A stretch of DNA of 64,000 nucleotides. It comes from Verrucomicrobia bacterium GWF2_51_19. GTDB taxonomy: Bacteria; Verrucomicrobiota; Verrucomicrobiia; Opitutales; UBA12508. The position numbers and the translations under genes are program-made. The stretch covers positions 30,514 through 94,513 of the forward strand of contig MIDP01000005.1 in the NCBI GenBank assembly GCA_001831095.1, in the 5' to 3' direction. Positions 2,805 to 59,580 of the stretch are shown here, piece after piece. Below the pieces are notes generated by a model. The model did no database searches. It worked only from the letters and a program-made list of their open reading frames with translations, and was not told the origin of the DNA. How positions within the stretch are numbered: position 1 is the stretch's first letter; every line of letters begins with the position of its first letter.

Positions 2805-2827
2805 TCCTTTCGTATTTTTTAATTCGC

Positions 2828-2956
2828 AAAGACCTGTGAAAAATGGCGTCAAAGCTTGGCTTTGCGCGAGCACGAGCTGCCGTAGCGTACATACGGTATG
2901 TAAGGCAGTCGCGCGGAGCGAAAAACGAGCTTTCACGGCATTTTGCATAGGTCTTT
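2828..2956 (+). repeat. Type-A element, full length (129 bp)
   Basis: Near-identical to the 1428 copy. The right end GGTCTTTTAA abuts the secY stop codon. Confidence 0.9.
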
Positions 2957-6288: not shown

Positions 6289-6378
6289 ATCAGAAAGAAT
6301 TTTGTTAATTTAAAAATAATCAACAAGAAATAATTTTTAGAAAACTACTTTTACTAAAAAACATTACTCATTGATGAT

Positions 6379-6507
6379 AAAGAACGATGATAAATGCTGT
6401 CAAAGCTTGGCTTTGCGCGAGCACGATTCGGCCGTAGCGTACGATGGTACGTAAGGCAGTCGCGCGGAGCGAAAAACGAGCTTTCACTGCATTTTGCATA
6501 GGTCTTT
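6379..6507 (+). repeat. Type-A element, full length (129 bp)
   Basis: TAAAGAACGATGATAAATGCTGTCAAAGCTTGGCTTTGCGCGAGCACGATTCGGCCGTAGCGTACGATGGTACG...GCATTTTGCATAGGTCTTTA. The terminal TTA is the rplF stop codon. Confidence 0.9.
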
Positions 6508-7054: not shown

Positions 7055-7441
7055 TTACCAAACTTTGCACAATAGTTCGCCCCCGACCTTTTTCAGCCGA
7101 GCCTCTTTATCTGTCAGAATGCCGCGGGAGGTACTCAAGATACCAATGCCCAAGCTATCCAACGTGTAAGGGACCTCTTTGTACGAGTAGTAACGGCGGC
7201 AACCGGGCTTGCTGTGACGCTGTATGCCCTGAATTGCCGGCTGTCCGCTCAAATACTTGAGCGTTACCAGAATCGCCTTGTGTCCCTGTCGTGTTGTTTC
7301 CGAAAAATCTGCAATATAGCCTTCTTTTTTCAAAATAGAAACAATACTTTCATTCATACGTGACCCACCCAAAATGCAGTCCGCCTTTTTCACAGAGCTT
7401 GCATTTCGAATTATAGTTAGGGTATCGCCTATGCTGTCCAT
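7055..7441 (-). CDS. rpsH: 30S ribosomal protein S8
   Basis: 128 aa. IGDTLTIIRNA...ILKKEGYI...TSRGILTDKEARLKKVGGELLCKVW. Confidence 0.95.
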   Translation of the reverse strand: MDSIGDTLTIIRNASSVKKADCILGGSRMNESIVSILKKEGYIADFSETTRQGHKAILVTLKYLSGQPAIQGIQRHSKPGCRRYYSYKEVPYTLDSLGIGILSTSRGILTDKEARLKKVGGELLCKVW

Positions 7442-7450
7442 AATTTTCCT

Positions 7451-7527
7451 AAGACTGTTGCAAAAGGGCCTCTAGTTGCAGTTCCCCTACTCGGGTCTTG
7501 CTGTAAGAGCCATTTTTCAACGGTCTT
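7451..7527 (+). repeat. Type-B element, short form (77 bp)
   Basis: AAGACTGTTGCAAAAGGGCCTCTAG...CTACTCGGGTCTTGCTGTAAGAGCCATTTTTCAACGGTCTT. Lies 9 nt from the rpsH ATG. Confidence 0.8.
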
Positions 7528-7552
7528 TTCATTTCGTAAGTTGTTAATTCAC

Positions 7553-7744
7553 AAAGACCTGTGAAAAATGCTGTCAAAATTTGGCTTTGCGCGAGCACGA
7601 TCTGCCGTAGCGGCAGGGCTGGCCCTGCACCCTTGGGATACTGCGTATCCACTTTTAAAAGTGGATGCGTGAGCATCCTAGGGGGTACGGGGGCCGCTGC
7701 CCCCGGCGAAAAACGAGCTTTAACGGCATTTTGCATAGGTCTTT
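7553..7744 (+). repeat. Type-A-long element (192 bp): A element with a 94-bp multi-hairpin module replacing the right half of its central stem
   Basis: The termini and outer arms are identical to type A. The interior differs (see 7613..7706). Confidence 0.9.
7613..7706 (+). repeat. 94-bp nested multi-hairpin module inside A-long
   Basis: GCAGGGCTGGCCCTGCACCCTTGGGATACTGCGTATCCACTTTTAAAAGTGGATGCGTGAGCATCCTAGGGGGTACGGGGGCCGCTGCCCCCGG. It contains consecutive short stems: CAGGGC/GCCCTG, GGATAC/GTATCC, CCACTTTT/AAAAGTGG, GGATGC/GCATCC and GGGGGC/GCCCCC. Confidence 0.85.
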
Positions 7745-7751
7745 CCTTTTT

Positions 7752-8057
7752 TTACCAAGAAGACTTCGTTATACCCGGCAATAGACCGGCTGAAGCCATT
7801 TCTCGGAATTGAATACGTGATACACCGAATTTACGCATACTGGCACGGGCACGACCTGTTATTGCACAACGGTTTCGTACACGTACGCGAGAAGAATTGC
7901 GCGGTAAAAGCGTCAGTGCGCGTTGCGCGATGAAAAAGTCCTCATCTGAAACATTGGGGTTTGAGAGCGTCTTCTTCAACTCGGCGCGACGGGCCGCATA
8001 CTTCTCTACCAAACGCATGCGCTTCTTATTTCTTTCGATACTTGATTTCTTAGCCAT
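7752..8057 (-). CDS. rpsN: 30S ribosomal protein S14 (long, non-zinc form)
   Basis: 101 aa. [28 protein letters not shown]...[25 protein letters not shown]. Confidence 0.95.
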
Positions 8058-8063
8058 GATATT

Positions 8064-8179
8064 TAGACTGTGGCAAAACGGCCAACGGCGTTCTCCTTAC
8101 TCGGGCTAGGTCACATACCTGAATACGCTTCCCGTCACCCTCGCTCGCCTGGCATTTCCGTTCCTTTCGCTACGGTCTT
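8064..8179 (+). repeat. Type-B element, full length, degenerate
   Basis: TAGACTGTGGCAAAACGGCCAACGGCGTTCTCCTTACTCGGGCTAGGTCACATACCTGAATACGCTTCCCGTCACCCTCGCTCGCCTGGC...CTACGGTCTT. The central stem is eroded. Lies 6 nt from the rpsN ATG. Confidence 0.75.
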
Positions 8180-8203
8180 TCCTTTCAAAAATTGTTAATT
8201 CAC

Positions 8204-8332
8204 AAAGACCTGTGAAAAATGGCGTCAAAGCTTGGCTTTGCGCGAGCACGATCTGCCGTAGCGTACATGCGGTACGTAAGGCAGTCGCGCGGAGCGAAAA
8301 ACGAACTTTCACGGCATTTTGCATAGGTCTTT
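8204..8332 (+). repeat. Type-A element, full length (129 bp)
   Basis: AAAGACCTGTGAAAAATGGCGTCAAAGCTTGGCTTTGCGCGAGCACGATCTGCCGTAGCGTACATGCGGTACGTAAGGCAGTCGCGCGGAGCGAAAAACGAACTTTCACGGCATTTTGCATAGGTCTTT. Abuts the rplE stop. Confidence 0.9.
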
Positions 8333-14744: not shown

Positions 14745-14844
14745 CATTCAGCGTTCTATGTTGTTTTTCTGCATTAGCTGCTGCGCGCAACGCGCAGCGA
14801 ATGTAAAAAGTGGTTTAAAGGGGCACACTTGCATGGCCCCGTTC

Positions 14845-14919
14845 AAAGACCTATCAAAAATGTCGTCAAAGCTTGGCTTTGCGCGAAACGAGCTTTCACG
14901 GTATTTTTCATAGGTCTTT
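14845..14919 (+). repeat. Type-A short form (75 bp, central hairpin deleted)
   Basis: AAAGACCTATCAAAAATGTCGTCAAAGCTTGGCTTTGCGCGA|AACGAGCTTTCACGGTATTTTTCATAGGTCTTTT. Abuts the rpsJ stop. Confidence 0.85.
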
Positions 14920-15233
14920 TATGTATTAATGGTAATATCGATCCCAGCCGGAAGGTTCAACTTCTTGAGCTCGTCGACGGTTTGTGATGTAGGCTCCTGG
15001 ATAATGAGAAACCGGGAGTGTGTACGGAGCTCGAACTGTTCCATGGACTTCTTATTGACGTGCGGGGAACGGTTGACAGTGAATTTCTCGATATCTACAG
15101 GCAAAGGGATGGGACCGGAGACGCGGGCGCCAGAGCGTTTAGCGGTCTCGACGATCTCTTTAGCGGACTGATCGACGACGCGGTAGTCATAGCCCTTGAG
15201 TTTGATACGAATCTTTGGAGTGGTAGTAGCCAT
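14919..15233 (-). CDS. rpsJ: 30S ribosomal protein S10
   Basis: 104 aa. [39 protein letters not shown]. Confidence 0.95.
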
Positions 15234-15251
15234 ATGGATCTTTCTTTAAAA

Positions 15252-17396
15252 TTAGGTACGAGCGGGTGCCCTGGATGATGTTTCGACGATCTTTTGGGCG
15301 ATGCTAGATGGGACGTCACTGAAGCATTCTGGCTCCATGACGTAGGAAGCGCGGCCCTTGCTGAGCGAGCGGACGTCGGTGGCGTATCCGAACATGTTTT
15401 CGAGGGGGACGTGCGCGGTGATATTGACGATCGGGCCCTTGGTTTCCATGCCTTGAATCTGGCCGCGGCGGCGGTTGAGGTCGCCCATGACGTCGCCCTG
15501 GTACATCTCTGGCGTCGCAACCTCCACTTTCATGATAGGTTCGAGCAAGAGTGGTGAGGCTTTCTTCATGGCGTCCTTAAATGCAAAGATACCTGCCATC
15601 TTAAATGCCATTTCAGACGAGTCAACTTCGTGGAAACTGCCGTCGACGATACGCGCGATAAAGTCAACCACGGGGTATCCGGCGACGGTACCGTTGCGGG
15701 CGCCCTCAGTGATACCTTCTTCGATCGGCTTGATGTATTCGCGTGGGACGACACCGCCAACGATCTCGTTGACAATTTCGATGCCCTTGCCTTTTTCGTT
15801 CGGCTCGAGCTTGATAATCGCGTGACCGTACTGACCGCGACCACCGGACTGGCGGATAAACTTGCCTTCGCCGTCGGCGGGCTGGCGGATCGTCTCGCGG
15901 TAAGCGATTTGCGGACGTCCGGCATCGGCCTCGACTTTAAATTCGCGGAACAAACGGTCGCGAATGATTTCGAGGTGCAATTCACCCATACCGGCGATGA
16001 TCGTCTGCCCGGTGTCCTGATTCGACGTTACGCAGAAAGTGGGATCTTCTTCGGCCAAGCGCTGCAAGGCCAGGGAGAGTTTTTCCTGATCGGCCTTGGT
16101 CTTGGGCTCGATCGACATGCTGATAACGGGCTCTGGGAACGTCGGTGGCTCCAGGCGAAAATCGAGTTCGCGAGCACATAAAGTGTCGCCCGTAATGACG
16201 TTTCTAGCACCGATGATCGCGCAGATGTCGCCAGAATAGGCCACATCAATATCAATGCGGTCGTTGGCCTTCATGAGCATGAGGCGGCTGATTCGCTCGG
16301 TCTTGCGCGTGCGTGGGTTGTAGAGGACATCACCCTTTCTCAACGTGCCGGCGTACATTCTAAAGAAAATGAGCTTTCCGACAAATGGGTCCGTGGCCAA
16401 CTTGAAGGCCAAGCCGCACGGGAGGGCACTGTCGTCGGGAGAAACGCCGACGATTTCACCGTCATCCTTGTGGGCCGGCATGGGAGGCAGGTCGAGCGGC
16501 GATGGCAAATAGTTGACAACGCTGTCTAGCAACATTTGCACGCCCTTGTTTTTAAACGCGCTACCGGGAATGACGCCCAAAAACTGCATTGAGAGGGTCG
16601 CTTTACGAATCGCGTGACGCAATTCCTCAATCGTGACGGACACGCCGTCCAAAAACTTTTCAGCCAAGTTGTCGTCGAAGTCGGCAAGTGCCTCTATGAG
16701 AGAATTGCGGTATTCTTTGGTCTGGGCAGCATATTCCGCTGGAATGGCTACTTCGTGGAAGTCCATACCCTTCGGATCGGTTTCGTCGTATATGTAGGCG
16801 ACTTCTTTAACGAGGTCGACGAGGCCCTTAAATTTATCTTCCGCTCCGATGTTGAGGTAGAGCGGGTGAGCATTGCCACCGAGCTTATGGCGGATATCGT
16901 GGACGGCGCCCAAAAAGTCAGCCCCGGTGCGGTCCATCTTGTTGACGAACGCCAACCTCGGCACGTGGTACTTGTCCATCTGGCGCCAAACGGTCTCTGA
17001 TTGCGGTTGAACACCGGCAACGGCGCAAAATACGCCTACGGCGCCATCGAGGACGCGCAGAGAACGCTCCACTTCAGCTGTAAAATCGACGTGACCAGGA
17101 GTGTCGATGATGTTGACGCGTTGCTCGATACCCTTAAACGGGCCCTCTTTTGTCGTCCAACTGCATGAAATCGCCGCTGACGTAATGGTGATGCCGCGCT
17201 CGCGCTCCTGCTCCATCCAGTCGGTCACTGTAGCTCCGTCGTGGACTTCGCCCATCTTGTGAACGACACCCGTGTAAAATAAGATACGCTCGGTGGTCGT
17301 TGTTTTACCGGCGTCGATGTGCGCCGCGATACCGATGTTACGCGTATACTCGAGGGGATTTTTGCGATCCTTGGAATTTTTCGTCGATAGGGCCAT
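15252..17396 (-). CDS. fusA: Elongation factor G
   Basis: 714 aa. [20 protein letters not shown] (G1), DTPGHVDF (G3), NKMD (G4). Confidence 0.95.
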
Positions 17397-18400: not shown

Positions 18401-18424
18401 TATTTTTTTATGGTATTTATTCGT

Positions 18425-18552
18425 AAAGACCTATGATAAATGTCGTAAAAGTTTGGCTTTGCGCGAGCACGATCTGCCGTAGCGTACGATGGTACGTGAG
18501 GCAGTCGCGCGGAGCGAAAAACAAGCTTTCACGGCATTTTGCATAGGTCTTT
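18425..18552 (+). repeat. Type-A element, full length (128 bp)
   Basis: TAAAGACCTATGATAAATGTCGTAAAAGTTTGGCTTTGCGCGAGCACGATCTGCCGTAGCGTACGATGGTACGTGAGGCAGTCGCGCGGAGCGAAAAACAAGCTTTCACGGCATTTTGCATAGGTCTTTA. Confidence 0.9.
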
Positions 18553-22803: not shown

Positions 22804-22836
22804 ACTATTTAATAAATGTGTAAATTATTGACGTAT

Positions 22837-22964
22837 AAAGACCAATGAAAAATGCCGTCAAAGCTTGGCTTTGCGCGAGCACGATCTGCCGTAGCGTACG
22901 ATGGTACGTAAGGCAGTCGCGCGGAGCGAAAAACGAGCTTTCACTGCATTTTGCATAGGTCTTT
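22837..22964 (+). repeat. Type-A element, full length (128 bp)
   Basis: TAAAGACCAATGAAAAATGCCGTCAAAGCTTGGCTTTGCGCGAGCACGATCTGCCGTAGCGTACGATGGTACGTAAGGCAGTCGCGCGGAGCGAAAAACGAGCTTTCACTGCATTTTGCATAGGTCTTTA. The terminal TTA is the rpoB stop codon. Confidence 0.9.
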
Positions 22965-27657: not shown

Positions 27658-28164
27658 TTAAACTTCTGCATGCGCGTTCAAGACATTCAAGAGTCCCTGT
27701 GGAACACCTTGAAGGACGTACAGGACCTTCTGCGCGGGCGTATTGAGAAGACCCAAGAGCTGTGCGCGCAGCACTTCGAGCGATGGCAGCTTGGACAGCG
27801 CTTCGACATCTCCAGCGGAGAGTAGACGCTTTTCCAAGATTGCACCGCGCATCTCGAGCTTCTTTTTGTCCTTTGCAAACTGCATCAGCACTTTGGCGAC
27901 ACCTGAAGGGTTCGATCCACCCACGACAACCGCATTCTGCCCTTGAAGCAGGTTGCTCATGTCGGGGAAAGAGCGTTCCTTGGCCACCACATTGAAAATG
28001 CTGTTCTTGACGACGTGGTAGGTCGCCGATTCTGCCCGAAGCGCTTTCCTCAATTCGGCGACATCGGCTACCGTCATGCCTTTAAAATCGGCCAATATGA
28101 CGTAATTCGATGCATCCAAATAGGACGCGACTTCTTGCACTAAAAATTGCTTATCTTGTCTCAT
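27658..28164 (-). CDS. rplJ: 50S ribosomal protein L10
   Basis: 168 aa, in position between rplA and rplL. L10-like N-domain (VILADFKGMTVADVAELRKALR). Confidence 0.9.
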   Translation of the reverse strand: MRQDKQFLVQEVASYLDASNYVILADFKGMTVADVAELRKALRAESATYHVVKNSIFNVVAKERSFPDMSNLLQGQNAVVVGGSNPSGVAKVLMQFAKDKKKLEMRGAILEKRLLSAGDVEALSKLPSLEVLRAQLLGLLNTPAQKVLYVLQGVPQGLLNVLNAHAEV

Positions 28165-28179
28165 AAAACATTCTTTCCT

Positions 28180-28244
28180 AAGACCATTGTTCCCAACGTT
28201 TCATATCGCTCTTCGGGCCTTGTCTTCAAGTTTTCAATAGTCTT
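28180..28244 (+). repeat. Type-B short form (65 bp), degenerate
   Basis: AAGACCATTGTTCCCAACGTTTCATATCGCTCTTCGGGCCTTGTCTTCAAGTTTTCAATAGTCTT. Confidence 0.65.
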
Positions 28245-28273
28245 TGCCTTTTTAGTAAAAATATAAGTCCCTA

Positions 28274-28465
28274 TTAGACCTGTGAAAAATGGCGTCAAAG
28301 CTTGGCTTTGCGCGAGCATGACCTGCCGCAGCGGCAGGGCTGGCCCTGCACCCTTGGATACTTCGTATCCACTTTTAAAAGTGGATGCATGAGCCCTCCT
28401 AGTGGGTACGGTGGCCGTTGCCCCCGGCGCGAAACGAGCTTTCACGGCATTTTGCATAGGTCTAA
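28274..28465 (+). repeat. Type-A-long element (192 bp), second copy
   Basis: TTAGACCTGTGAAAAATGGCGTCAAAGCTTGGCTTTGCGCGAGCATGACCTGCCGCAGCG[module]CGCGAAACGAGCTTTCACGGCATTTTGCATAGGTCTAA. The CTA in the right terminus is the rplA TAG stop. Confidence 0.9.
28334..28427 (+). repeat. 94-bp multi-hairpin module, second copy (diverged)
   Basis: GCAGGGCTGGCCCTGCACCCTTGGATACTTCGTATCCACTTTTAAAAGTGGATGCATGAGCCCTCCTAGTGGGTACGGTGGCCGTTGCCCCCGG. It has the same length and stem order as 7613..7706, and the GGATAC/GTATCC loop changes from TGC to TTC. Confidence 0.85.
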
Positions 28466-29157
28466 TAGTGGCCGAACTCCTTGCTGTCTAGTGGGATACC
28501 TGGTGACATGGTCGCCGTCAAGGTCATACTGCAAATATATTTGCCCTTGAGGGACTCCGGACGCGCCTTGCCCATGATGTCGATCGCCTGTTTGGCGTTT
28601 TCCATCAAGGCTTCTGGCGTGAACGAACGCTTGCCGATAATGACCGACACGTTGCCCGTCTTGTCCATCTTGAACTCGACGCGGCCAGCCTTTACAGCAT
28701 GAACACCTGCGGCGATGTCATCGGTAACCGTTCCAGACTTCGGATTTGGCATCAAGCCACGCGGACCTAGGACTCGGGCGACGTTGCGGACCTCTTTCAT
28801 GGCCGTTGTCGTCGACAGAGCGACGTCAAAATCCATCCAGCCCTCTTGGACTTTTTGGATCATGTCGGCGAGGCCAGCAAAGTCGGCACCCGCTTTGATC
28901 GCCGCCTCGGGATCTTCCGTGAACACGAGGACTCGAATTTTCTTACCACTTCCATGTGGCAAGCTGACGGTACCGCGCACCATGTGCGTGCTCTGCTTGG
29001 GATCGACTCCCAAATGGGCCGAAATCTCGACCGTTTCATCAAATTTTGCTTTGGGAAACTCATTCAAGAGTGCAACGGCCTCAGTCAATGAATAGGCCTT
29101 GTCGCTCTCGACGTGCTTGATGGCTTCCCTATAACGTTTACTTGGTTTTTGTGCCAT
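28462..29157 (-). CDS. rplA: 50S ribosomal protein L1
   Basis: 231 aa. KRYREAIKHVESDKAYSL...FDETVEISAHLGVDPKQ...VRGTVSLPHG. Confidence 0.95.
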   Translation of the reverse strand: MAQKPSKRYREAIKHVESDKAYSLTEAVALLNEFPKAKFDETVEISAHLGVDPKQSTHMVRGTVSLPHGSGKKIRVLVFTEDPEAAIKAGADFAGLADMIQKVQEGWMDFDVALSTTTAMKEVRNVARVLGPRGLMPNPKSGTVTDDIAAGVHAVKAGRVEFKMDKTGNVSVIIGKRSFTPEALMENAKQAIDIMGKARPESLKGKYICSMTLTATMSPGIPLDSKEFGHY

Positions 29158-30430: not shown

Positions 30431-30675
30431 AAACCTCTTCAAAAGGACCTCTAGCAGCGTTCTCCCTGCAGGCAAATTTGGCAATAAGTTCGTTATCCTT
30501 CGTGATTCGCCTATGTCACGCATTTCAATGCGCTCCAGTCGGCTCACACTCGGAAGCCTGCTTCTTGCCCCATTTGCCTGCAGGTTCGTCGTTCGGGCTA
30601 GGTCACGTACGTCAGAGTACGCTCCCGTCGCCCTCGCTCCTCGGGACCTTGCTATAGGCCATTTTGAAGAGGTTT
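30431..30675 (+). repeat. Type-B element interrupted by a nested 120-bp element
   Basis: AAACCTCTTCAAAAGGACCTCTAGCAGCGTTCTCC[insert]TTCGTCGTTCGGGCTAGGTCACGTACGTCAGAGTACGCTCCCGTCGCCCTCGCTCCTCGGGACCTTGCTATAGGCCATTTTGAAGAGGTTT. Confidence 0.85.
30465..30584 (+). mobile_element. Nested type-D MITE-like insert (120 bp), single copy in window
   Basis: Perfect 13-bp inverted termini CCTGCAGGCAAAT...ATTTGCCTGCAGG, extendable to ~24 bp imperfect. It splits the left arm of a type-B element. Confidence 0.75.
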
Positions 30676-32517: not shown

Positions 32518-34938
32518 ATGCAATCAACACTACTATCGTCGGAAAGCAAATATTTTTGGGGTCTATTTTACCTCTGTTTAGGCGGGCTGATGGGGGCGGC
32601 GTTGTGGAACTTTGATCTATTACAGACCTTGTTTGCGACGACAGCCAAGCATCCAAGCAACATTACTGGGCTCTTGGGAAGCTACGCGGCGTTTTGGAGC
32701 TTTCGTTTCTTTGGATGTGCTGCGTGGATGTTGCCGACCTACATGATCTTTGCATCCTATGCCCTACTCTTCCGAAAGAGCCACACCCTGCGCTTTTGGC
32801 GATACGCGGCCATGTTTGTGACCGTCATCAGCTTGGCGGCGTTGGGCAACCTTTGGCAAAGCTTGTTTTTGAGCGAAAAAGCCAAGGTGTTCCTTTACAG
32901 CAGCGCTTATTCTCAGGGCCTGGGCGGCATCTTGGGCGACATTGCCCTCTATCGCGTCATTGCAAACATTGGCCTGCTCGGCACCTGCGTCCTCTACACT
33001 GTATCTTTTTGCGTATCCCTCGTGGTCTCACTCTCACCGGAAGCCACACCGCAAGCGGCCTTTGCGCGTTTTCTGAAAATGGCAAAAGTCTTTTTAACGC
33101 GAGCCACACGCGTCGCTGGAGCCTTTGGCCGACTTTCGCAGAGAGCGCTATCGGTTTTTTGGCAACAGACACAGGATAAACTCGCCCAAATTCGCGCCAC
33201 GAAACAGTCGGCGCTTCCACCTATAGAAGCTAAACAGCCGATAGAAGCTAAACAGCCGGTGTCTCTCGCGGAAAAGCCCGACAGCGACTATGCGCCACCG
33301 GATTTTCAACGAGCCGCCTCGGAGCTTTCCAAAGCCGTCTCAGAGCACTCAACGCCACTCAAAATGCTTGAAAAGCCGGTTGAGCATGTGCGCATCGAGC
33401 CTCAATCGCTCAAAATTGTCGCCGAAGAGGTCCTGGAAAAGGGCCTGGTGAATCGCCCGCAACGAGGCAATTACCAATTTCCGCCGCTCGACATCCTTAA
33501 GACGGCCCCAGAGTCCTCCAAGCCCAACACCGAAGAGCACGCGCAGACGGCACAGGCGCTCATCGACAAGCTTGAAGAGTTTGGCGTCAGCGTCTTTTTA
33601 AATGAAATCCACACGGGTCCGGTCATCACGCGCTACGAAGTGACGCCGGCAAAGGGTGTCCGCGTTGAAAAGATTGTCAACCTCGATAAAAACATCGCCC
33701 TCGGCCTCAAAGCGCTCTCGGTTCGCATATTGGCGCCGGTTCCAGGCAAGGGCTGCGTCGGCATCGAGTTGCCAAACAAGCGCCCACAGGCCGTCTGCTT
33801 GCGCGACATTTTGGAATCGAAGGCGTGGGCCGAGTCTCAGGCAGAAATTCCCATTGTTTTAGGAAAAGAAGTGACTGGAAAACCCATCGTCGCCGACCTC
33901 ACGCGCATGCCACACCTCCTCATCGCCGGCTCCACGGGCTCCGGCAAGACGGTCTGCATCAACACGATCATCGCCTCTCTGCTCTACCACTCGAGCCCAG
34001 AAGACCTCCGCTTTATCATGGTCGACCCGAAAATCGTCGAAATGAAGGTTTTCAACGACCTCCCACACATGCTCGTCCCCGTCGTCACGGATCCCAAAAA
34101 AGTACCAGGCGCGCTCAAATGGCTGATCTCGGAGATGGAACACCGCTATCAGATCTTTGCCCAAGTCGGCGCACGCAACATCGCCAGTTTCAATGCAAAG
34201 CTCAGCGAAAAGAGCAGCACGGCTGAAAAGATCGACCTCTCCCCCGAGGAACGCACGGCCCTCCGCGAGTTCGACACCGAAAAGGTCTCCGTTCCGCGCG
34301 AAAAGCTGCCTTACATCGTCTGCGTCATCGACGAGCTGGCTGACCTCATGATGGTTGCCCCGGCGGACGTCGAGTCGTCGATCACCCGACTCGCACAGCT
34401 GGCGCGAGCGGCCGGCATTCACCTCATCATCGCGACGCAACGGCCCTCCGTCAACGTCATTACTGGTGTAATCAAGGCAAACCTGCCAAGCCGTATCGCC
34501 TTTAAAGTCGCATCAAAAGTCGACAGCCGAACCATTCTCGACGGCATGGGCGCTGAAAACCTCATCGGCCGCGGTGACATGCTCTTCGTTCCACCAGGAG
34601 CCTCAGACCTCATTCGCGCGCAGGGAGCCTTTGTCTCCGATGAAGAAATCACAGCTATCGTCGAGGCCCTCAAGGTCAACGGCGCTCCACAATTTGTCGC
34701 AGAAATCCAAGATCACATCGAGTCTGAGTCTGGTGAAGACGGCCCCACTCTCGATGGTGAATGGGACGACAACCTCATTCCACAGGCACTCGCAGTCCTC
34801 AGATCCACCGACAAGCCCTCGACTTCTCTGCTACAGCGCCGCCTCAAGATCGGTTACAACCGCGCCGCCCGTATCATGGAAACCCTCCAGGCTGAGGGGC
34901 TGGTTAGCAATATCTCTGAACCTGCCAACCTACAGTAA
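32518..34938 (+). CDS. ftsK: DNA translocase FtsK/SpoIIIE
   Basis: 806 aa with N-terminal TM helices, Walker A LLIAGSTGSGKTV, Walker B YIVCVIDELADL, and C-terminal gamma winged helix (TSLLQRRLKIGYNRAARIMETLQAEGLV). Confidence 0.93.
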   Translation: MQSTLLSSESKYFWGLFYLCLGGLMGAALWNFDLLQTLFATTAKHPSNITGLLGSYAAFWSFRFFGCAAWMLPTYMIFASYALLFRKSHTLRFWRYAAMFVTVISLAALGNLWQSLFLSEKAKVFLYSSAYSQGLGGILGDIALYRVIANIGLLGTCVLYTVSFCVSLVVSLSPEATPQAAFARFLKMAKVFLTRATRVAGAFGRLSQRALSVFWQQTQDKLAQIRATKQSALPPIEAKQPIEAKQPVSLAEKPDSDYAPPDFQRAASELSKAVSEHSTPLKMLEKPVEHVRIEPQSLKIVAEEVLEKGLVNRPQRGNYQFPPLDILKTAPESSKPNTEEHAQTAQALIDKLEEFGVSVFLNEIHTGPVITRYEVTPAKGVRVEKIVNLDKNIALGLKALSVRILAPVPGKGCVGIELPNKRPQAVCLRDILESKAWAESQAEIPIVLGKEVTGKPIVADLTRMPHLLIAGSTGSGKTVCINTIIASLLYHSSPEDLRFIMVDPKIVEMKVFNDLPHMLVPVVTDPKKVPGALKWLISEMEHRYQIFAQVGARNIASFNAKLSEKSSTAEKIDLSPEERTALREFDTEKVSVPREKLPYIVCVIDELADLMMVAPADVESSITRLAQLARAAGIHLIIATQRPSVNVITGVIKANLPSRIAFKVASKVDSRTILDGMGAENLIGRGDMLFVPPGASDLIRAQGAFVSDEEITAIVEALKVNGAPQFVAEIQDHIESESGEDGPTLDGEWDDNLIPQALAVLRSTDKPSTSLLQRRLKIGYNRAARIMETLQAEGLVSNISEPANLQ
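33223..33258 (+). repeat. 18-bp tandem duplication inside the ftsK linker
   Basis: ATAGAAGCTAAACAGCCG x2, encoding PIEAKQ PIEAKQ. Confidence 0.8.
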
Positions 34939-35062
34939 AGACGGATCAAAATAGCGCAAAAATGCGTTTCGCGCTCCGCCGACTGGCTTACGTACCATCG
35001 TACGCTACGCCAGATCGTACTCGCGCAAAGCCACATTTTTGCATCTATTTTGATCCGTCTTT
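34937..35062 (-). repeat. Type-C element (126 bp)
   Basis: AAAGACGGATCAAAATAGCGCAAAAATGCGTTTCGCGCTCCGCCGACTGGCTTACGTACCATCGTACGCTACGCCAGATCGTACTCGCGCAAAGCCACATTTTTGCATCTATTTTGATCCGTCTTT. Its left terminus overlaps the ftsK TAA. Confidence 0.9.
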
Positions 35063-35085
35063 ACACTTTACGATTTGTCTAATGC

Positions 35086-44697: not shown

Positions 44698-47055
44698 ATG
44701 AATAATATCAACGGGAATTTAGGCCGACCGCCAAACCAGCCAAACCAAATTGATAGGCAAAACTTAAGGCAAACTGTTGATCAATTTATGATTGATCTGT
44801 CTGTTAAAGTGCAGCGCGACATTCAAAGTCGAAAAGCAATGTCCGTCGAAGGGCTCGACGTCGAAAGTTCACGCGAAACCCACAGACAACTTGTGGACAT
44901 TCTCGCTCAAAAATCGGTTGGCCAACTAAACGACTTTATTCGCGAACACCCAATTGCCATTTTAAACAAGACAGAAAACGACTTCTTTCTGGATCCGTTT
45001 GTCGTCATCGACGAATACATCCCAAACATTCATATAGATGATAGCCCATTGTGCGTCGCCGTTCAAAATGGTGATTGGAACTCGATCCTCTACCTGTTAA
45101 TCAAACATGTCGACATCAATGCCTGTGGGCGATTCGGAACCCCCTTACGTTACGCAGCTGCAGTTGGCAATGTCGAGATTATGAAGCTTTTAATCAAGGA
45201 AGGAGCCGATGTCAATTTCTTGCCTGAGTTTGTAAATGGAGAACACACGCCTCTTTTTGCTGCAGTTGTAAATAAGAAATACGACACGTTAGAGTATTTG
45301 TTGTCACTTCCAATCATAGATATGGATGGTCCACACGGTATTGTCGATATACCGCAAGAAGACGGCAGTAGTGTTTCACTGGATTCGCCATTAGTCGCCT
45401 CTGTTTTATTGCGCGACGAAAAGGCTTTTGAGCGGCTATTGCGGGCTGGATTCAATGTTAACAAAATCGACGAACAGTTAGATAATAGCCCCATGGAATT
45501 GATAGTAGACTTAAAGTTAAAAACATTTTTGGCTTATGTCTTCAATGTCGCTAAGCCCCAAACCAAGATAGAGGATGCTATAATTGCGTGGCAGGCAATC
45601 CATCGGTCAGAAACAGGCTACAATAAAGGCACTATGGGCGATGAATCCGACTATATATCTTTAATCCAATACCTTTGGACTGGAAATTTTTCTTATCATG
45701 AATCTTCATATAAATTTGCAGAACTGTCAGAGAAAGATTCCTTTTTGTTTCTAGGAGACCGCATCTCAATCGGAGAAAACGGCAATCGCTATTACAATAA
45801 GTATTTCGCAAACATTGATACCTGGGAAATTATCGCAAATACTGTCGGCTTGGGAAATGAAAGAGTCATTCAAGAACCTATATGGATAAAAAATTACCAC
45901 CCAGAGAAAGATATTAATGAACAAGCATTTTGGCTTAAAACAGCCTACGATTGGAAGCGAAAAAAACATGAACTCCCACGTTTTCTCTTCTCTCTTTTAG
46001 AGACCAATGAACGTCAAGAACACGATGTCTTTTCTGTCGCATCTTTTTTTGATCAACTAGACGCCTTGCTGTTTTCTTTTCGCACTTATTTTGGAGTGGA
46101 AAAATTCTTTTCACTCTCCTCTCAAAATGCTTTTGATCAACTACTTTTGCGTCATTTATCATCATTAACGCTAGACAAAACTCCACTAATAGAAAAGGCC
46201 ATGCTAGGAGGCCATGAACCACTCGCGATGCTGTGCGCGAAAGCTACAGTGACTGGCAATACGAAATTATCTTCTGGGCAAACATATATCGAATATGCGG
46301 CCTCTCAAGGCTTATTTTATCTCGTAGAATACTTTTTAGATAAAGGAACTTCTGTTTCTCAAGCCAGCGACATGCTTATTGGCTCGGATTGGGGTGCTCC
46401 CAATTTTCTGATTGGGTTGATTGAAGCTAAGACACATCCATTTACTCCAGACTCAGTTTTGCAACAGAGACTGAGTGAGCGTACGCGATTTCTGTATGAG
46501 TTTGAAACCTTTTTAACAGAGGTCAAAGACAGTAATGATTCCGCCATTCTTGAACAATGTCAGGCATTTCTCAATCAATCAAAGGACTATTTTTCGACAC
46601 GCATAAAGCCCAATAAAGACTTAGATTCAGCAACAAAAACGCCCTGTGAAATCATGATTCAACAAAAACGAGATGAAATTACAGACCGTGGAGATAAACT
46701 GTTGGTTGCGATTCTCTCCAATAACATCAATGATTTTAAAGAAATCCTTTCTTCATTCACGCGCAGTATCTACCACTATAAGACATTCAAAAAGTTAAAT
46801 CATGTTAAAAAAATAGTTGATGTCGATCAGGACAGTATAGATGAATTTTACAAAACCCTCGAAATGCATTACGGTATTCGTCCAATCGAGCAAGAAGAAA
46901 TCGGCAACAGCTTGAACTCTCTTCTGGATTCAAAAATCGAGCTCGACGACGAAAATTTTGAAAAGATTAAAGAGCTCTACCATAGAGCAAAAATGTCAAA
47001 ATGTGTTGACCGCGAAAAAAAAGATCTAAATCTTAAAAAAATTAAGAAAATTTGA
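44698..47055 (+). CDS. Ankyrin-repeat protein, ~785 aa, A+T-rich gene
   Basis: ORF 44647..47055 (TTG) trimmed to the first ATG, MNNINGNLGRPPNQ. ANK repeats are visible (SPLCVAVQNGDWNSILYLLIKHVDINA, GTPLRYAAAVGNVEIMKLLIKEGADVN, HTPLFAAVVNKKYDTLEYLL). The rest has no family I recognise. Confidence 0.75.
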   Translation: MNNINGNLGRPPNQPNQIDRQNLRQTVDQFMIDLSVKVQRDIQSRKAMSVEGLDVESSRETHRQLVDILAQKSVGQLNDFIREHPIAILNKTENDFFLDPFVVIDEYIPNIHIDDSPLCVAVQNGDWNSILYLLIKHVDINACGRFGTPLRYAAAVGNVEIMKLLIKEGADVNFLPEFVNGEHTPLFAAVVNKKYDTLEYLLSLPIIDMDGPHGIVDIPQEDGSSVSLDSPLVASVLLRDEKAFERLLRAGFNVNKIDEQLDNSPMELIVDLKLKTFLAYVFNVAKPQTKIEDAIIAWQAIHRSETGYNKGTMGDESDYISLIQYLWTGNFSYHESSYKFAELSEKDSFLFLGDRISIGENGNRYYNKYFANIDTWEIIANTVGLGNERVIQEPIWIKNYHPEKDINEQAFWLKTAYDWKRKKHELPRFLFSLLETNERQEHDVFSVASFFDQLDALLFSFRTYFGVEKFFSLSSQNAFDQLLLRHLSSLTLDKTPLIEKAMLGGHEPLAMLCAKATVTGNTKLSSGQTYIEYAASQGLFYLVEYFLDKGTSVSQASDMLIGSDWGAPNFLIGLIEAKTHPFTPDSVLQQRLSERTRFLYEFETFLTEVKDSNDSAILEQCQAFLNQSKDYFSTRIKPNKDLDSATKTPCEIMIQQKRDEITDRGDKLLVAILSNNINDFKEILSSFTRSIYHYKTFKKLNHVKKIVDVDQDSIDEFYKTLEMHYGIRPIEQEEIGNSLNSLLDSKIELDDENFEKIKELYHRAKMSKCVDREKKDLNLKKIKKI

Positions 47056-59380: not shown

Positions 59381-59415
59381 TCCCCCTCGCCAACAAAAGG
59401 GTGGCTGTATCGAAA

Positions 59416-59454
59416 CCGGAAACCCTTTTTTATAGAATAAAAAAGAGTTTCCGG
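59416..59454. other. Long hairpin downstream of secDF
   Basis: CCGGAAACCCTTTTTTAT-AGA-ATAAAAAAGAGTTTCCGG. 17 of 18 positions are complementary. Confidence 0.6.
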
Positions 59455-59478
59455 ACCTTCCCAAAAAACACTTTTTTA

Positions 59479-59515
59479 GCGAAATACAAAAATGTCTAAC
59501 ATTTTTGCATTTCGC
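59479..59515. repeat. Hairpin built on the CAAAAATG/CATTTTTG repeat-terminus core
   Basis: GCGAAATACAAAAATG-TCTAA-CATTTTTGCATTTCGC. 15 of 16 positions are complementary. Confidence 0.6.
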
Positions 59516-59580
59516 ATAAAATTTTTTGAAGGGGATCCGGGGCAAATTTTTTTTTAAAAAAGGTTCACCCGGGCTATCAT

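Follow-up and report, generated by a model that had tools for sequence, protein, structure and literature searches.

Two unusually long copies of an inverted-repeat element, both in spacers between ribosomal-protein genes, raise the question of whether the segment that sets them apart is a mobile unit of its own, a structured RNA, or an exchangeable part of the element that carries it. Both copies lie in a stretch of 64,000 nucleotides (hereafter, the window) from Verrucomicrobia bacterium GWF2_51_19 (contig MIDP01000005.1, forward-strand positions 30,514 to 94,513), whose genome has been placed in Opitutales (PMC6920513). [quoted passage not shown] Two type-A copies, at 7552-7744 and at 28276-28463, exceed the others in length by about 60 nt, and the segment that distinguishes them is called M here. 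In our view, M probably serves as an alternative cassette at the apex of a long-form subfamily of the type-A MITE in this Opitutales genome. The evidence best supports a mosaic MITE family with at least two apex cassettes that can be exchanged, M being one of them and multiplying within the composite element.

The M cassette and its host element

The termini of type-A elements read (T)AAAGACCTGTGAAAAATG ... CATTTTGCATAGGTCTTT(A), with the end sequence also given as (T)AAAGACCnnTGnAAAATG, and they pair with each other in the predicted fold. These termini and a small apex hairpin (GCGTACGnTGGTACGT) are common to type A and type B, and the terminal motif GACCNNTGNAAAATG, with two mismatches or fewer, was found 66 times in the window against 7.1 expected. 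As the reference for the plain, short-apex form we used the element at 2827..2956 (+), to which the copies at 1427-1555, 6378-6507, 8203-8332, 18424-18552 and 22836-22964 are similar. The first long copy occupies 7552..7744 (+) and consists of a left arm (7552-7611), the M cassette (7612..7706, +) and a right arm (7707-7744), and the second, at 28276..28463 (+), has its M cassette at 28333..28427 (+). Each cassette is 95 nt, and the two are 91.7% identical (E = 1.5e-27) and equal in length despite two offsetting 1-nt indels; no shuffled sequence matched the 95-nt segment. The module of about 94 bp that the initial annotation had described in the two long copies is therefore a discrete and reproducible segment, and its proposed relation to the host also held. 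That is, the M-form is a replacement of the right half of the type-A central stem, in which the plain sequence TACATACGGTATGTAAGGCAGTCGCGCGGA, the roughly 30 nt of apex hairpin and right inner arm, is missing, and the GGCAG still pairs with the retained CTGCC arm in a tight hairpin, CTGCC-GTAGC-GGCAG, directly after which M starts.

We next consider the copies beyond the window, which are given with locus numbers. Loci L006-L009 came from a scan of JGI metagenomes with a pattern for the 3' half of M, and loci L010-L015 and L020-L021 from look-ups of proteins derived from open reading frames (ORFs) across the element. The search for such spurious ORFs returned five proteins and two new loci, none of them with M outside type A. 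After duplicate records of the same locus had been merged, seven distinct full copies of M were counted in this genome (7612 and 28333 in the window, L006, L007 (= L009, L020), L008, L010 (= L011, L012) and L013 (= L014, L015)), which answers the expectation that further copies should exist. Each of the seven is enclosed in a type-A element, with no difference between them at either junction. Since the same host segment is also missing in every one, these junctions argue for one founding event rather than for repeated insertion. A profile hidden Markov model (HMM), run against about 134 kb of this genome in non-redundant form, located full M within type A alone, and a half copy behind the xth gene, described below, was the sole extra copy. 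The suggestion that M is a separate mobile unit thus stood in part: M is a discrete, recurrent segment with sharp boundaries, distinct from the type-A arms, which has a half copy outside type A and a relative both in the same slot and as a stand-alone unit, but all full copies are within type A. Independent mobility of M is possible.

The distribution beyond this organism was also surveyed. Among 185,579 species genomes, a collection from which the host species is absent, the pattern for the 3' half of M gave two chance matches only (in Bacteriovoracaceae and in a Dehalococcoidia metagenome-assembled genome (MAG)), and viral contigs scanned with the core of the M palindrome gave no match. The rpsH protein of the window was found on contigs of groundwater metagenomes.

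Type-A arms were observed with at least four different centres, namely the short apex hairpin, M, a second cassette (P) and none; the last is a mini form of 76 bp (14844..14919, +), from which the entire centre is deleted between two GCGCGA repeats. The mini form resembles a deletion from a form carrying GCGCGAAACG, as the M-form does. Type A is accordingly a modular repeat with the same ends and alternative centres. The composite element also has the size and structure of a MITE, in that it is 190 bp long, has terminal inverted repeats and is non-coding, its frames being shifted by indels between copies. Copies are dispersed, the M-form at seven loci and plain or other type-A elements at more than 12, and type-A ends are usually flanked by T and A (TAAAGACC...GGTCTTTA), compatible with a TA target.

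The arms were compared between forms. For each M-form arm the nearest neighbour was a plain type-A copy, and a separate lineage of M-form arms was not supported (permutation p = 0.08, not significant, with one right arm mis-extracted). The copy at 7552 has about 25 nt of upstream context in common with the plain copies at 8203 and 2827. Together, the neighbour relationships and the shared upstream context suggest either that larger units of type B, spacer and type A move together or that centres are exchanged. A recurrent larger unit of this kind was observed, in which a short type-B right end is followed by a conserved spacer of about 25 nt (..TTTCGTAAGTTGTTAATTCAC) and then by a plain or M-form type-A element (2734-2956, 7453-7744 and 8072-8332 in the window, and in L006 and L010).

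If M is an apex cassette, it would multiply passively, the whole composite being mobilised through its type-A termini by a transposase acting in trans; alternatively, recombination or gene conversion may copy the centre from one resident type-A element to another. The swap itself could have arisen by capture of a 3'-end hairpin region, by recombination of two partial elements, or by a true insertion. Several observations weigh against the cassette reading. Neither the gene tables for the sampled loci nor a scan of 10 window ORFs revealed a transposase domain. The samples all represent one clone, as the assemblies from four data sources (ENA, JGI and NCBI among them) are 99.97-100% identical where they overlap, and we infer the transposition of the composite as a unit. 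The 134 kb of the genome sampled was mostly reached through M itself. Moreover, the M-form and plain type A each have sequence that the other lacks, so that neither a simple insertion nor a simple deletion relates them, and the half copy behind xth has no adjoining type-A arm, which shows that M sequence can exist outside type A.

A second cassette and the stand-alone units

A search with a type-A profile recovered two more long forms (L013:3464-3695 and L008:3344-3590), which carry a different cassette, P, of about 130 nt. P follows the same CTGCCGTAGCGGCAG as M does (TTGCCGTAATAGCAG in L008) and thus occupies the same apex slot; the two cassettes share their starting nucleotide, after GTAGCG, and their first four bases, GCAG. 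P contains a palindrome (GCGAAATATAAAAATGCATGCATTTTTGTGTTTCGC), which is AT-rich and terminator-like, and a long GC-clamped hairpin. The two cassettes have a 3' motif in common, AGGGGGT(A)CGGGG-hairpin-CCCCG, which in the sampled DNA occurs only in these cassettes and, by chance, at one 3' end of 16S rRNA.

Relatives of both cassettes lie outside type A. The right half of M recurs at 40334-40377 (93% identity, E = 3e-13; 40327..40378, +, in the extent given by the profile HMM), as the hairpins GGATGC-GTGA-GCATCC and CTGGGGGC-CGCT-GCCCCCAG. This half copy sits in the spacer between the convergent genes glmS and xth (40383..41141, -), not within a type-A element, and ends 5 nt from the xth stop codon, so that the partial 3' copy reported behind xth is confirmed. 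The P core matches in 28 of 28 nt beside it (40294-40328), and the locus is therefore a P/M chimera, not merely a truncated M. The P-core palindrome that abuts the M half (GTGAAACACAAAAATGCATGCATTTTTGTGTTTCGC; 40295..40330, -) has a 16-bp stem and the tail TCTTTTGG, and is terminator-like. A stand-alone P-like symmetric unit was found at 59400..59575 (no strand assigned), where two inverted P half-units surround an AT-rich palindrome; the unit lacks type-A arms and comes immediately after the stop codon of secDF (59581). M thus belongs to a small family of symmetric cassettes, members of which also occur outside type A. One gene caller merged the unit at 59400-59575 into an ORF of 363 amino acids, and the NCBI gene start lies about 270 nt further on. 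In the glmS-xth spacer we also observed a degenerate type-B element (40037-40181) between the inverted repeats AAATCGCGCGATGTT and AACATCGCGCGATTT, and a stretch at about 40198-40222 (-) resembling a type-A left end (GTGTAAAATGGCGTCAAAG); this spacer is a patchwork of repeat fragments.

The common starting nucleotide of M and P is one reason to ask whether they are independently mobile hairpin units that home into the type-A apex hairpin (the GTAG in CTGCC-GTAGC-GGCAG), as a "parasite of a parasite". They would then count as REPIN-like doublets or as palindrome-associated derivatives of the IS200/IS605 type, which a Y1/HUH transposase would move in the form of single-stranded DNA. Several further features fit such homing: both cassettes have hairpins near their ends besides the common 3' motif; M is an inverted doublet with a singlet half behind xth, like REPIN doublets and REP singlets; stand-alone P-like units exist; M-form arms are interspersed among plain type-A arms; the copy at 7552 shares its upstream context with plain copies; and in Coxiella, IS1111 targets the GTAG REP inside QMITE2. 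However, the same host sequence of about 30 nt is missing at the same junctions in all seven copies, as expected of one founding event, and full M was found only within type A in the sampled sequence. There is no definable target duplication or cleavage motif, and the sampled DNA yielded no RAYT or IS200-type gene, although the whole genome was not searched. We regard homing of independently mobile units as unlikely, and we rate marginally lower still its narrower version, in which M and P are autonomous-in-trans elements of the single-strand type (REPIN- or IS200/IS605-derivative-like) homing specifically into the GTAG-bearing apex of another MITE.

The position of the stand-alone units bears on another origin, in which M and P are captured host DNA, that is, native hairpin or terminator regions of gene 3' ends that a pair of partial type-A elements came to enclose and that were then amplified as in pack-MITEs. 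Type A inserts right behind stop codons, where such hairpins occur, and the units behind xth and secDF are in exactly that position. The inner arms of the P-form are of two types, GGCAG (A1) and GCCAG (A2), as though two different elements had been joined, and the P core behind xth is terminator-like. The stand-alone units are, however, P-like or chimeric, with no full M among them; they could equally be remnants of long forms, the direction not being readable, and two such loci only are known. Capture therefore seems to us improbable, and the cassette reading, under which M and P are alternative centres that travel inside the type-A element, is preferred.

Predicted structure and placement among genes

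M is an imperfect two-fold palindrome with three predicted hairpins. Its plus-strand HMM matches every copy on the opposite strand as well (positions 15-80, E about 1e-7 to 2e-8), and by inspection two half-units of about 47 nt in inverted orientation flank the perfect palindrome CCACTTTTAAAAGTGG, which makes M an inverted dimer. Each half-unit consists of a 6-bp hairpin followed by a GC-clamped hairpin (GGATAC-TGC-GTATCC and CAGGG-CTGG-CCCTG in the left half, GGATGC-GTGA-GCATCC and GGGGGC-CGCT-GCCCCC in the right half). The five or six back-to-back stems noted initially are present in the sense that all the listed complementary hexamers occur, but they cannot all form at full length together, because neighbouring stems share bases: GTATCC/CCACTTTT overlaps with AAAAGTGG/GGATGC, and CCCTTGG/CCTAGGG overlaps with the flanking stems. 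The minimum free energy fold of copy 1 has three hairpins, namely GCAGGG/CCCUGC (6 bp), a central stem of 22-26 bp and CGGGGGC/GCCCCCG (7 bp), and the cloverleaf-like junction that had been proposed for the middle stems was not favoured, with no significant covariation for either arrangement.

The predicted folds are very stable. For M copy 1, the energies were -62.9 kcal/mol (z = -6.6) as RNA of the plus strand, -52.3 kcal/mol (z = -5.2) as RNA of the minus strand and -30.1 kcal/mol (z = -5.2) as DNA. The copy in L008, which is consensus-like, has the three-hairpin topology of copy 1 and is almost strand-symmetric (-55.6 and -52.4 kcal/mol for RNA of the two strands; z = -4.9 and -5.6). The copy at 28333 (-43.9 kcal/mol, z = -3.5, plus-strand RNA) differs in topology from copy 1 and has lost parts of two stems, which are partly decayed (GCATCC to CCCTCC and GGGGGC to GGTGGC). 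For the whole composite element, the plus-strand RNA reached -102.4 kcal/mol (z = -8.3), in a fold in which the arms close a multi-branch junction that holds three hairpins, CTGCCG/CGGCAG, the long central one and the last one.

Such stability, together with the location of two M copies inside ribosomal-protein operons, might indicate that M is kept as a functional structured RNA, either as a cis-acting signal for processing or stability in operon mRNAs or as a small RNA. The seven copies have 93% per-column identity, and the three-hairpin model was 95.9% paired and the five-hairpin cloverleaf 97.0%. Changes on both sides were limited to a single pair at the base of the last hairpin, where L010 has U-A for C-G, a compensatory change found also in the half copy behind xth. 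Variable columns tend to lie in loops, with odds ratios of 2.7 (p = 0.06) for the five-hairpin model and 2.0 (p = 0.26) for the three-hairpin model, neither of which is significant. Against these points, the covariation score was reached by 156-160 of 500 shuffles under either fold model (7 sequences, 93% identity), so that it is no better than the shuffled control; the copy at 28333 has broken stems and another fold; and the stems of the small hairpins are all Watson-Crick and would form as readily in DNA as in RNA, whichever the strand. Selection on the structure of M is not demonstrated, and these data cannot choose between the folds.

Searches for a known function of M gave a similar picture. 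Rfam at the gathering score identified two tRNAs elsewhere in the window and no family match at M, a permissive Rfam scan yielded sub-threshold miRNA-hairpin noise only, and ARAGORN reported nothing at 7450-7850; M as a tRNA-like cloverleaf or as an Rfam family was therefore rejected. M as a small protein was rejected as well, because indels shift the frames between copies. No promoter-like or terminator-like site was found in or beside M at 7400-7800. The GGGGGC-CGCT-GCCCCC hairpin behind xth had been considered as a terminator, but it has no T tract on either strand (AGAATTT on the plus strand, AGGCCCCC on the minus strand) and was not flagged; the only terminator-like site close behind xth is instead the P palindrome (40330-40295, -).

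We turn to the placement of the elements among genes. Composite copy 1 lies between rpsN (7752..8057, -) and rpsH (7055..7441, -), and composite copy 2 between rplA (28462..29157, -) and rplJ (27658..28164, -), with its right end overlapping the rplA stop codon by 2 nt. Copy 1 is antisense to both of its neighbours, and each of the seven M-form elements is likewise flanked by co-directional genes and antisense to them. The right end of the M-form is within 2 nt of the stop codon of the upstream gene in four of the seven, and is separated from it, or overlaps, by 8, 14 and 21 nt in the others. From this position the M-forms are probably co-transcribed, adding a very stable three-hairpin block to the mRNA. 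This block could affect mRNA processing or stability, as judged from the position and from the precedents of ERIC and Correia elements, whose transcripts are substrates of RNase E and RNase III, with processing that depends on orientation (PMC2229807, PMC10969869).

The antisense orientation would thus fit a functional RNA, but plain type-A elements show the same tendency. The right end of type A (..GCATAGGTCTTTA; TAAAGACC.. as its reverse complement) is within 2 nt of the stop codon of the gene reading in for 13 of 23 elements, and four further elements are 8-22 nt from a stop codon, with one clear case of sense orientation only. Stop-codon adjacency and the antisense bias are therefore properties of the whole family, not of M, and point to insertion at, or selection for, the TAA/TA at stop codons with strict orientation. 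At the elements at 34937 and 35253, the orientation follows the adjacent genes and not the replication strand. With no Rfam match and no promoter-like site besides, the retention of M as a functional RNA appears to be an outside chance, and a dedicated function of M is not indicated.

The arms of type A vary together. The similarity of the two termini within a copy exceeds that between copies (permutation p = 5e-5), and since the arms co-vary in this way, the type-A host itself is kept as a hairpin. This could be due to hairpin potential being kept in each copy by selection, to conversion within the element, or to the existence of many sublineages. Copy by copy, the co-varying arms include AAATAACC/GGTTATTT, CATGACC/GGTCATG, GACACAATG/CATTGTGTC and TTAGACC/GGTCTAA (examples at L006:1133-1325, L013:9995-10183, L020:5340-5540 and, in the window, 28276-28463 and 34937-35063).

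A few observations concern the surrounding genes. The MITEs occupy spacers between ribosomal-protein genes and genes of RNA-polymerase size on the minus strand. ORFs run through the MITEs at 7449-7736 (-) and 28161-28457 (-) in the window, and at L010:10001-10228 and L013:10001-10252. Because the frames shift between copies, these are almost certainly not genes, and the annotated A2Y14_03720, A2Y14_03835, A2Y14_02600 and DHV51_04710 are read-through ORFs of the MITE. The MAG of the host also encodes parts of a type III secretion system (a secretin, a type III secretion ATPase, and CesT-, TyeA- and YscX-like proteins), a Fic protein and ankyrin-repeat proteins (L013:6482-10644, L022:119-3066 and 15080-16402, and window 44647-47055), which hints at a host-associated lifestyle of this groundwater Opitutales bacterium.

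Comparison with known modular repeats

The element is one more bacterial MITE with a modular centre, in an unstudied phylum, and matters little in itself. It accounts for several "hypothetical proteins" of this MAG in GenBank and shows why assemblies of the organism break at these sites. The wider context is of more interest than M, as the genome is saturated with foldback repeats, including in the spacers of ribosomal-protein operons, and the combination of stop-codon placement, a single orientation, co-varying arms and an exchangeable apex deserves note. If the exchange of cassettes were active homing, the family would be a clean natural system for non-autonomous elements that parasitise one another, with M and P as mobile elements whose niche is another mobile element.

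Among known repeats, the closest parallel is with the Correia (NEMIS) elements of Neisseria, which have forms of 107 and 155 bp that differ by an internal segment of 50 bp (PMC2229807). Like type A with M, they are intergenic foldback MITEs with long terminal inverted repeats and two size classes; they are also TA-flanked, as type-A ends usually are, and co-transcribed, as the M-forms probably are (PMC2229807, PMC10969869). In type A, however, the extra segment, 94 nt long, forms a palindrome of several hairpins in its own right, it takes the place of about 30 nt instead of being simply present or absent, and it has a second, related alternative in P. The two also have no sequence similarity and belong to different host phyla, and no IHF site or promoter is shown for the element described here.

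In the BOX elements of Streptococcus (boxA-boxB(n)-boxC), the boxB modules fold independently between conserved ends, and the BIMEs of enterobacteria and the NIMEs of Neisseria are likewise mosaic (PMC3049150). The resemblance to type A with M lies in the conserved ends and in optional internal modules that fold alone without disturbing the outer stem, as well as in the clustering of elements and their insertion into one another (PMC3049150, PMC10969869). M differs from BOX in that it is not tandemly iterated as boxB is and in that the cassettes are two-fold symmetric dimers, and there is no sequence relationship.

QMITE2 of Coxiella burnetii has a full and a small version and a GTAG palindrome, and is located at the 3' ends of genes (PMC5896051). 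It shares with type A and M the size of a 150-190-bp MITE, the two size classes, the GTAG palindrome, the abutting or overlapping of stop codons and very stable RNA folds. Its small version is a truncation without terminal repeats, whereas the type-A forms keep both arms and differ at the apex, and there is no sequence similarity. Identity of the element with a Coxiella QMITE, suggested by a layout like that of QMITE1/2, was rejected, as the source is an Opitutales MAG (from a GC content of 51% and the protein names), and QMITE is retained as an analogue.

REP sequences and REPINs are inverted doublets of short palindromic units that form a long hairpin, with singlet remnants, and lie extragenically behind genes; their hallmarks are a conserved GTAG at the end of the unit, hundreds of free extragenic copies and a cognate RAYT gene. 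M is likewise an inverted doublet, with a central hairpin of 22-26 bp formed from two inverted units, each of which has a 6-bp hairpin. Unlike in REPINs, the GTAG lies in the hairpin loop of the host element and not in M, and the full copies found number only 7, all embedded in type A. The sequences are not similar, and this genome has no known RAYT gene. Taken with the Correia, BOX and QMITE2 elements, the comparison places type A with M as a new example of an established kind of repeat, the modular MITE that comes in a long and a short form.

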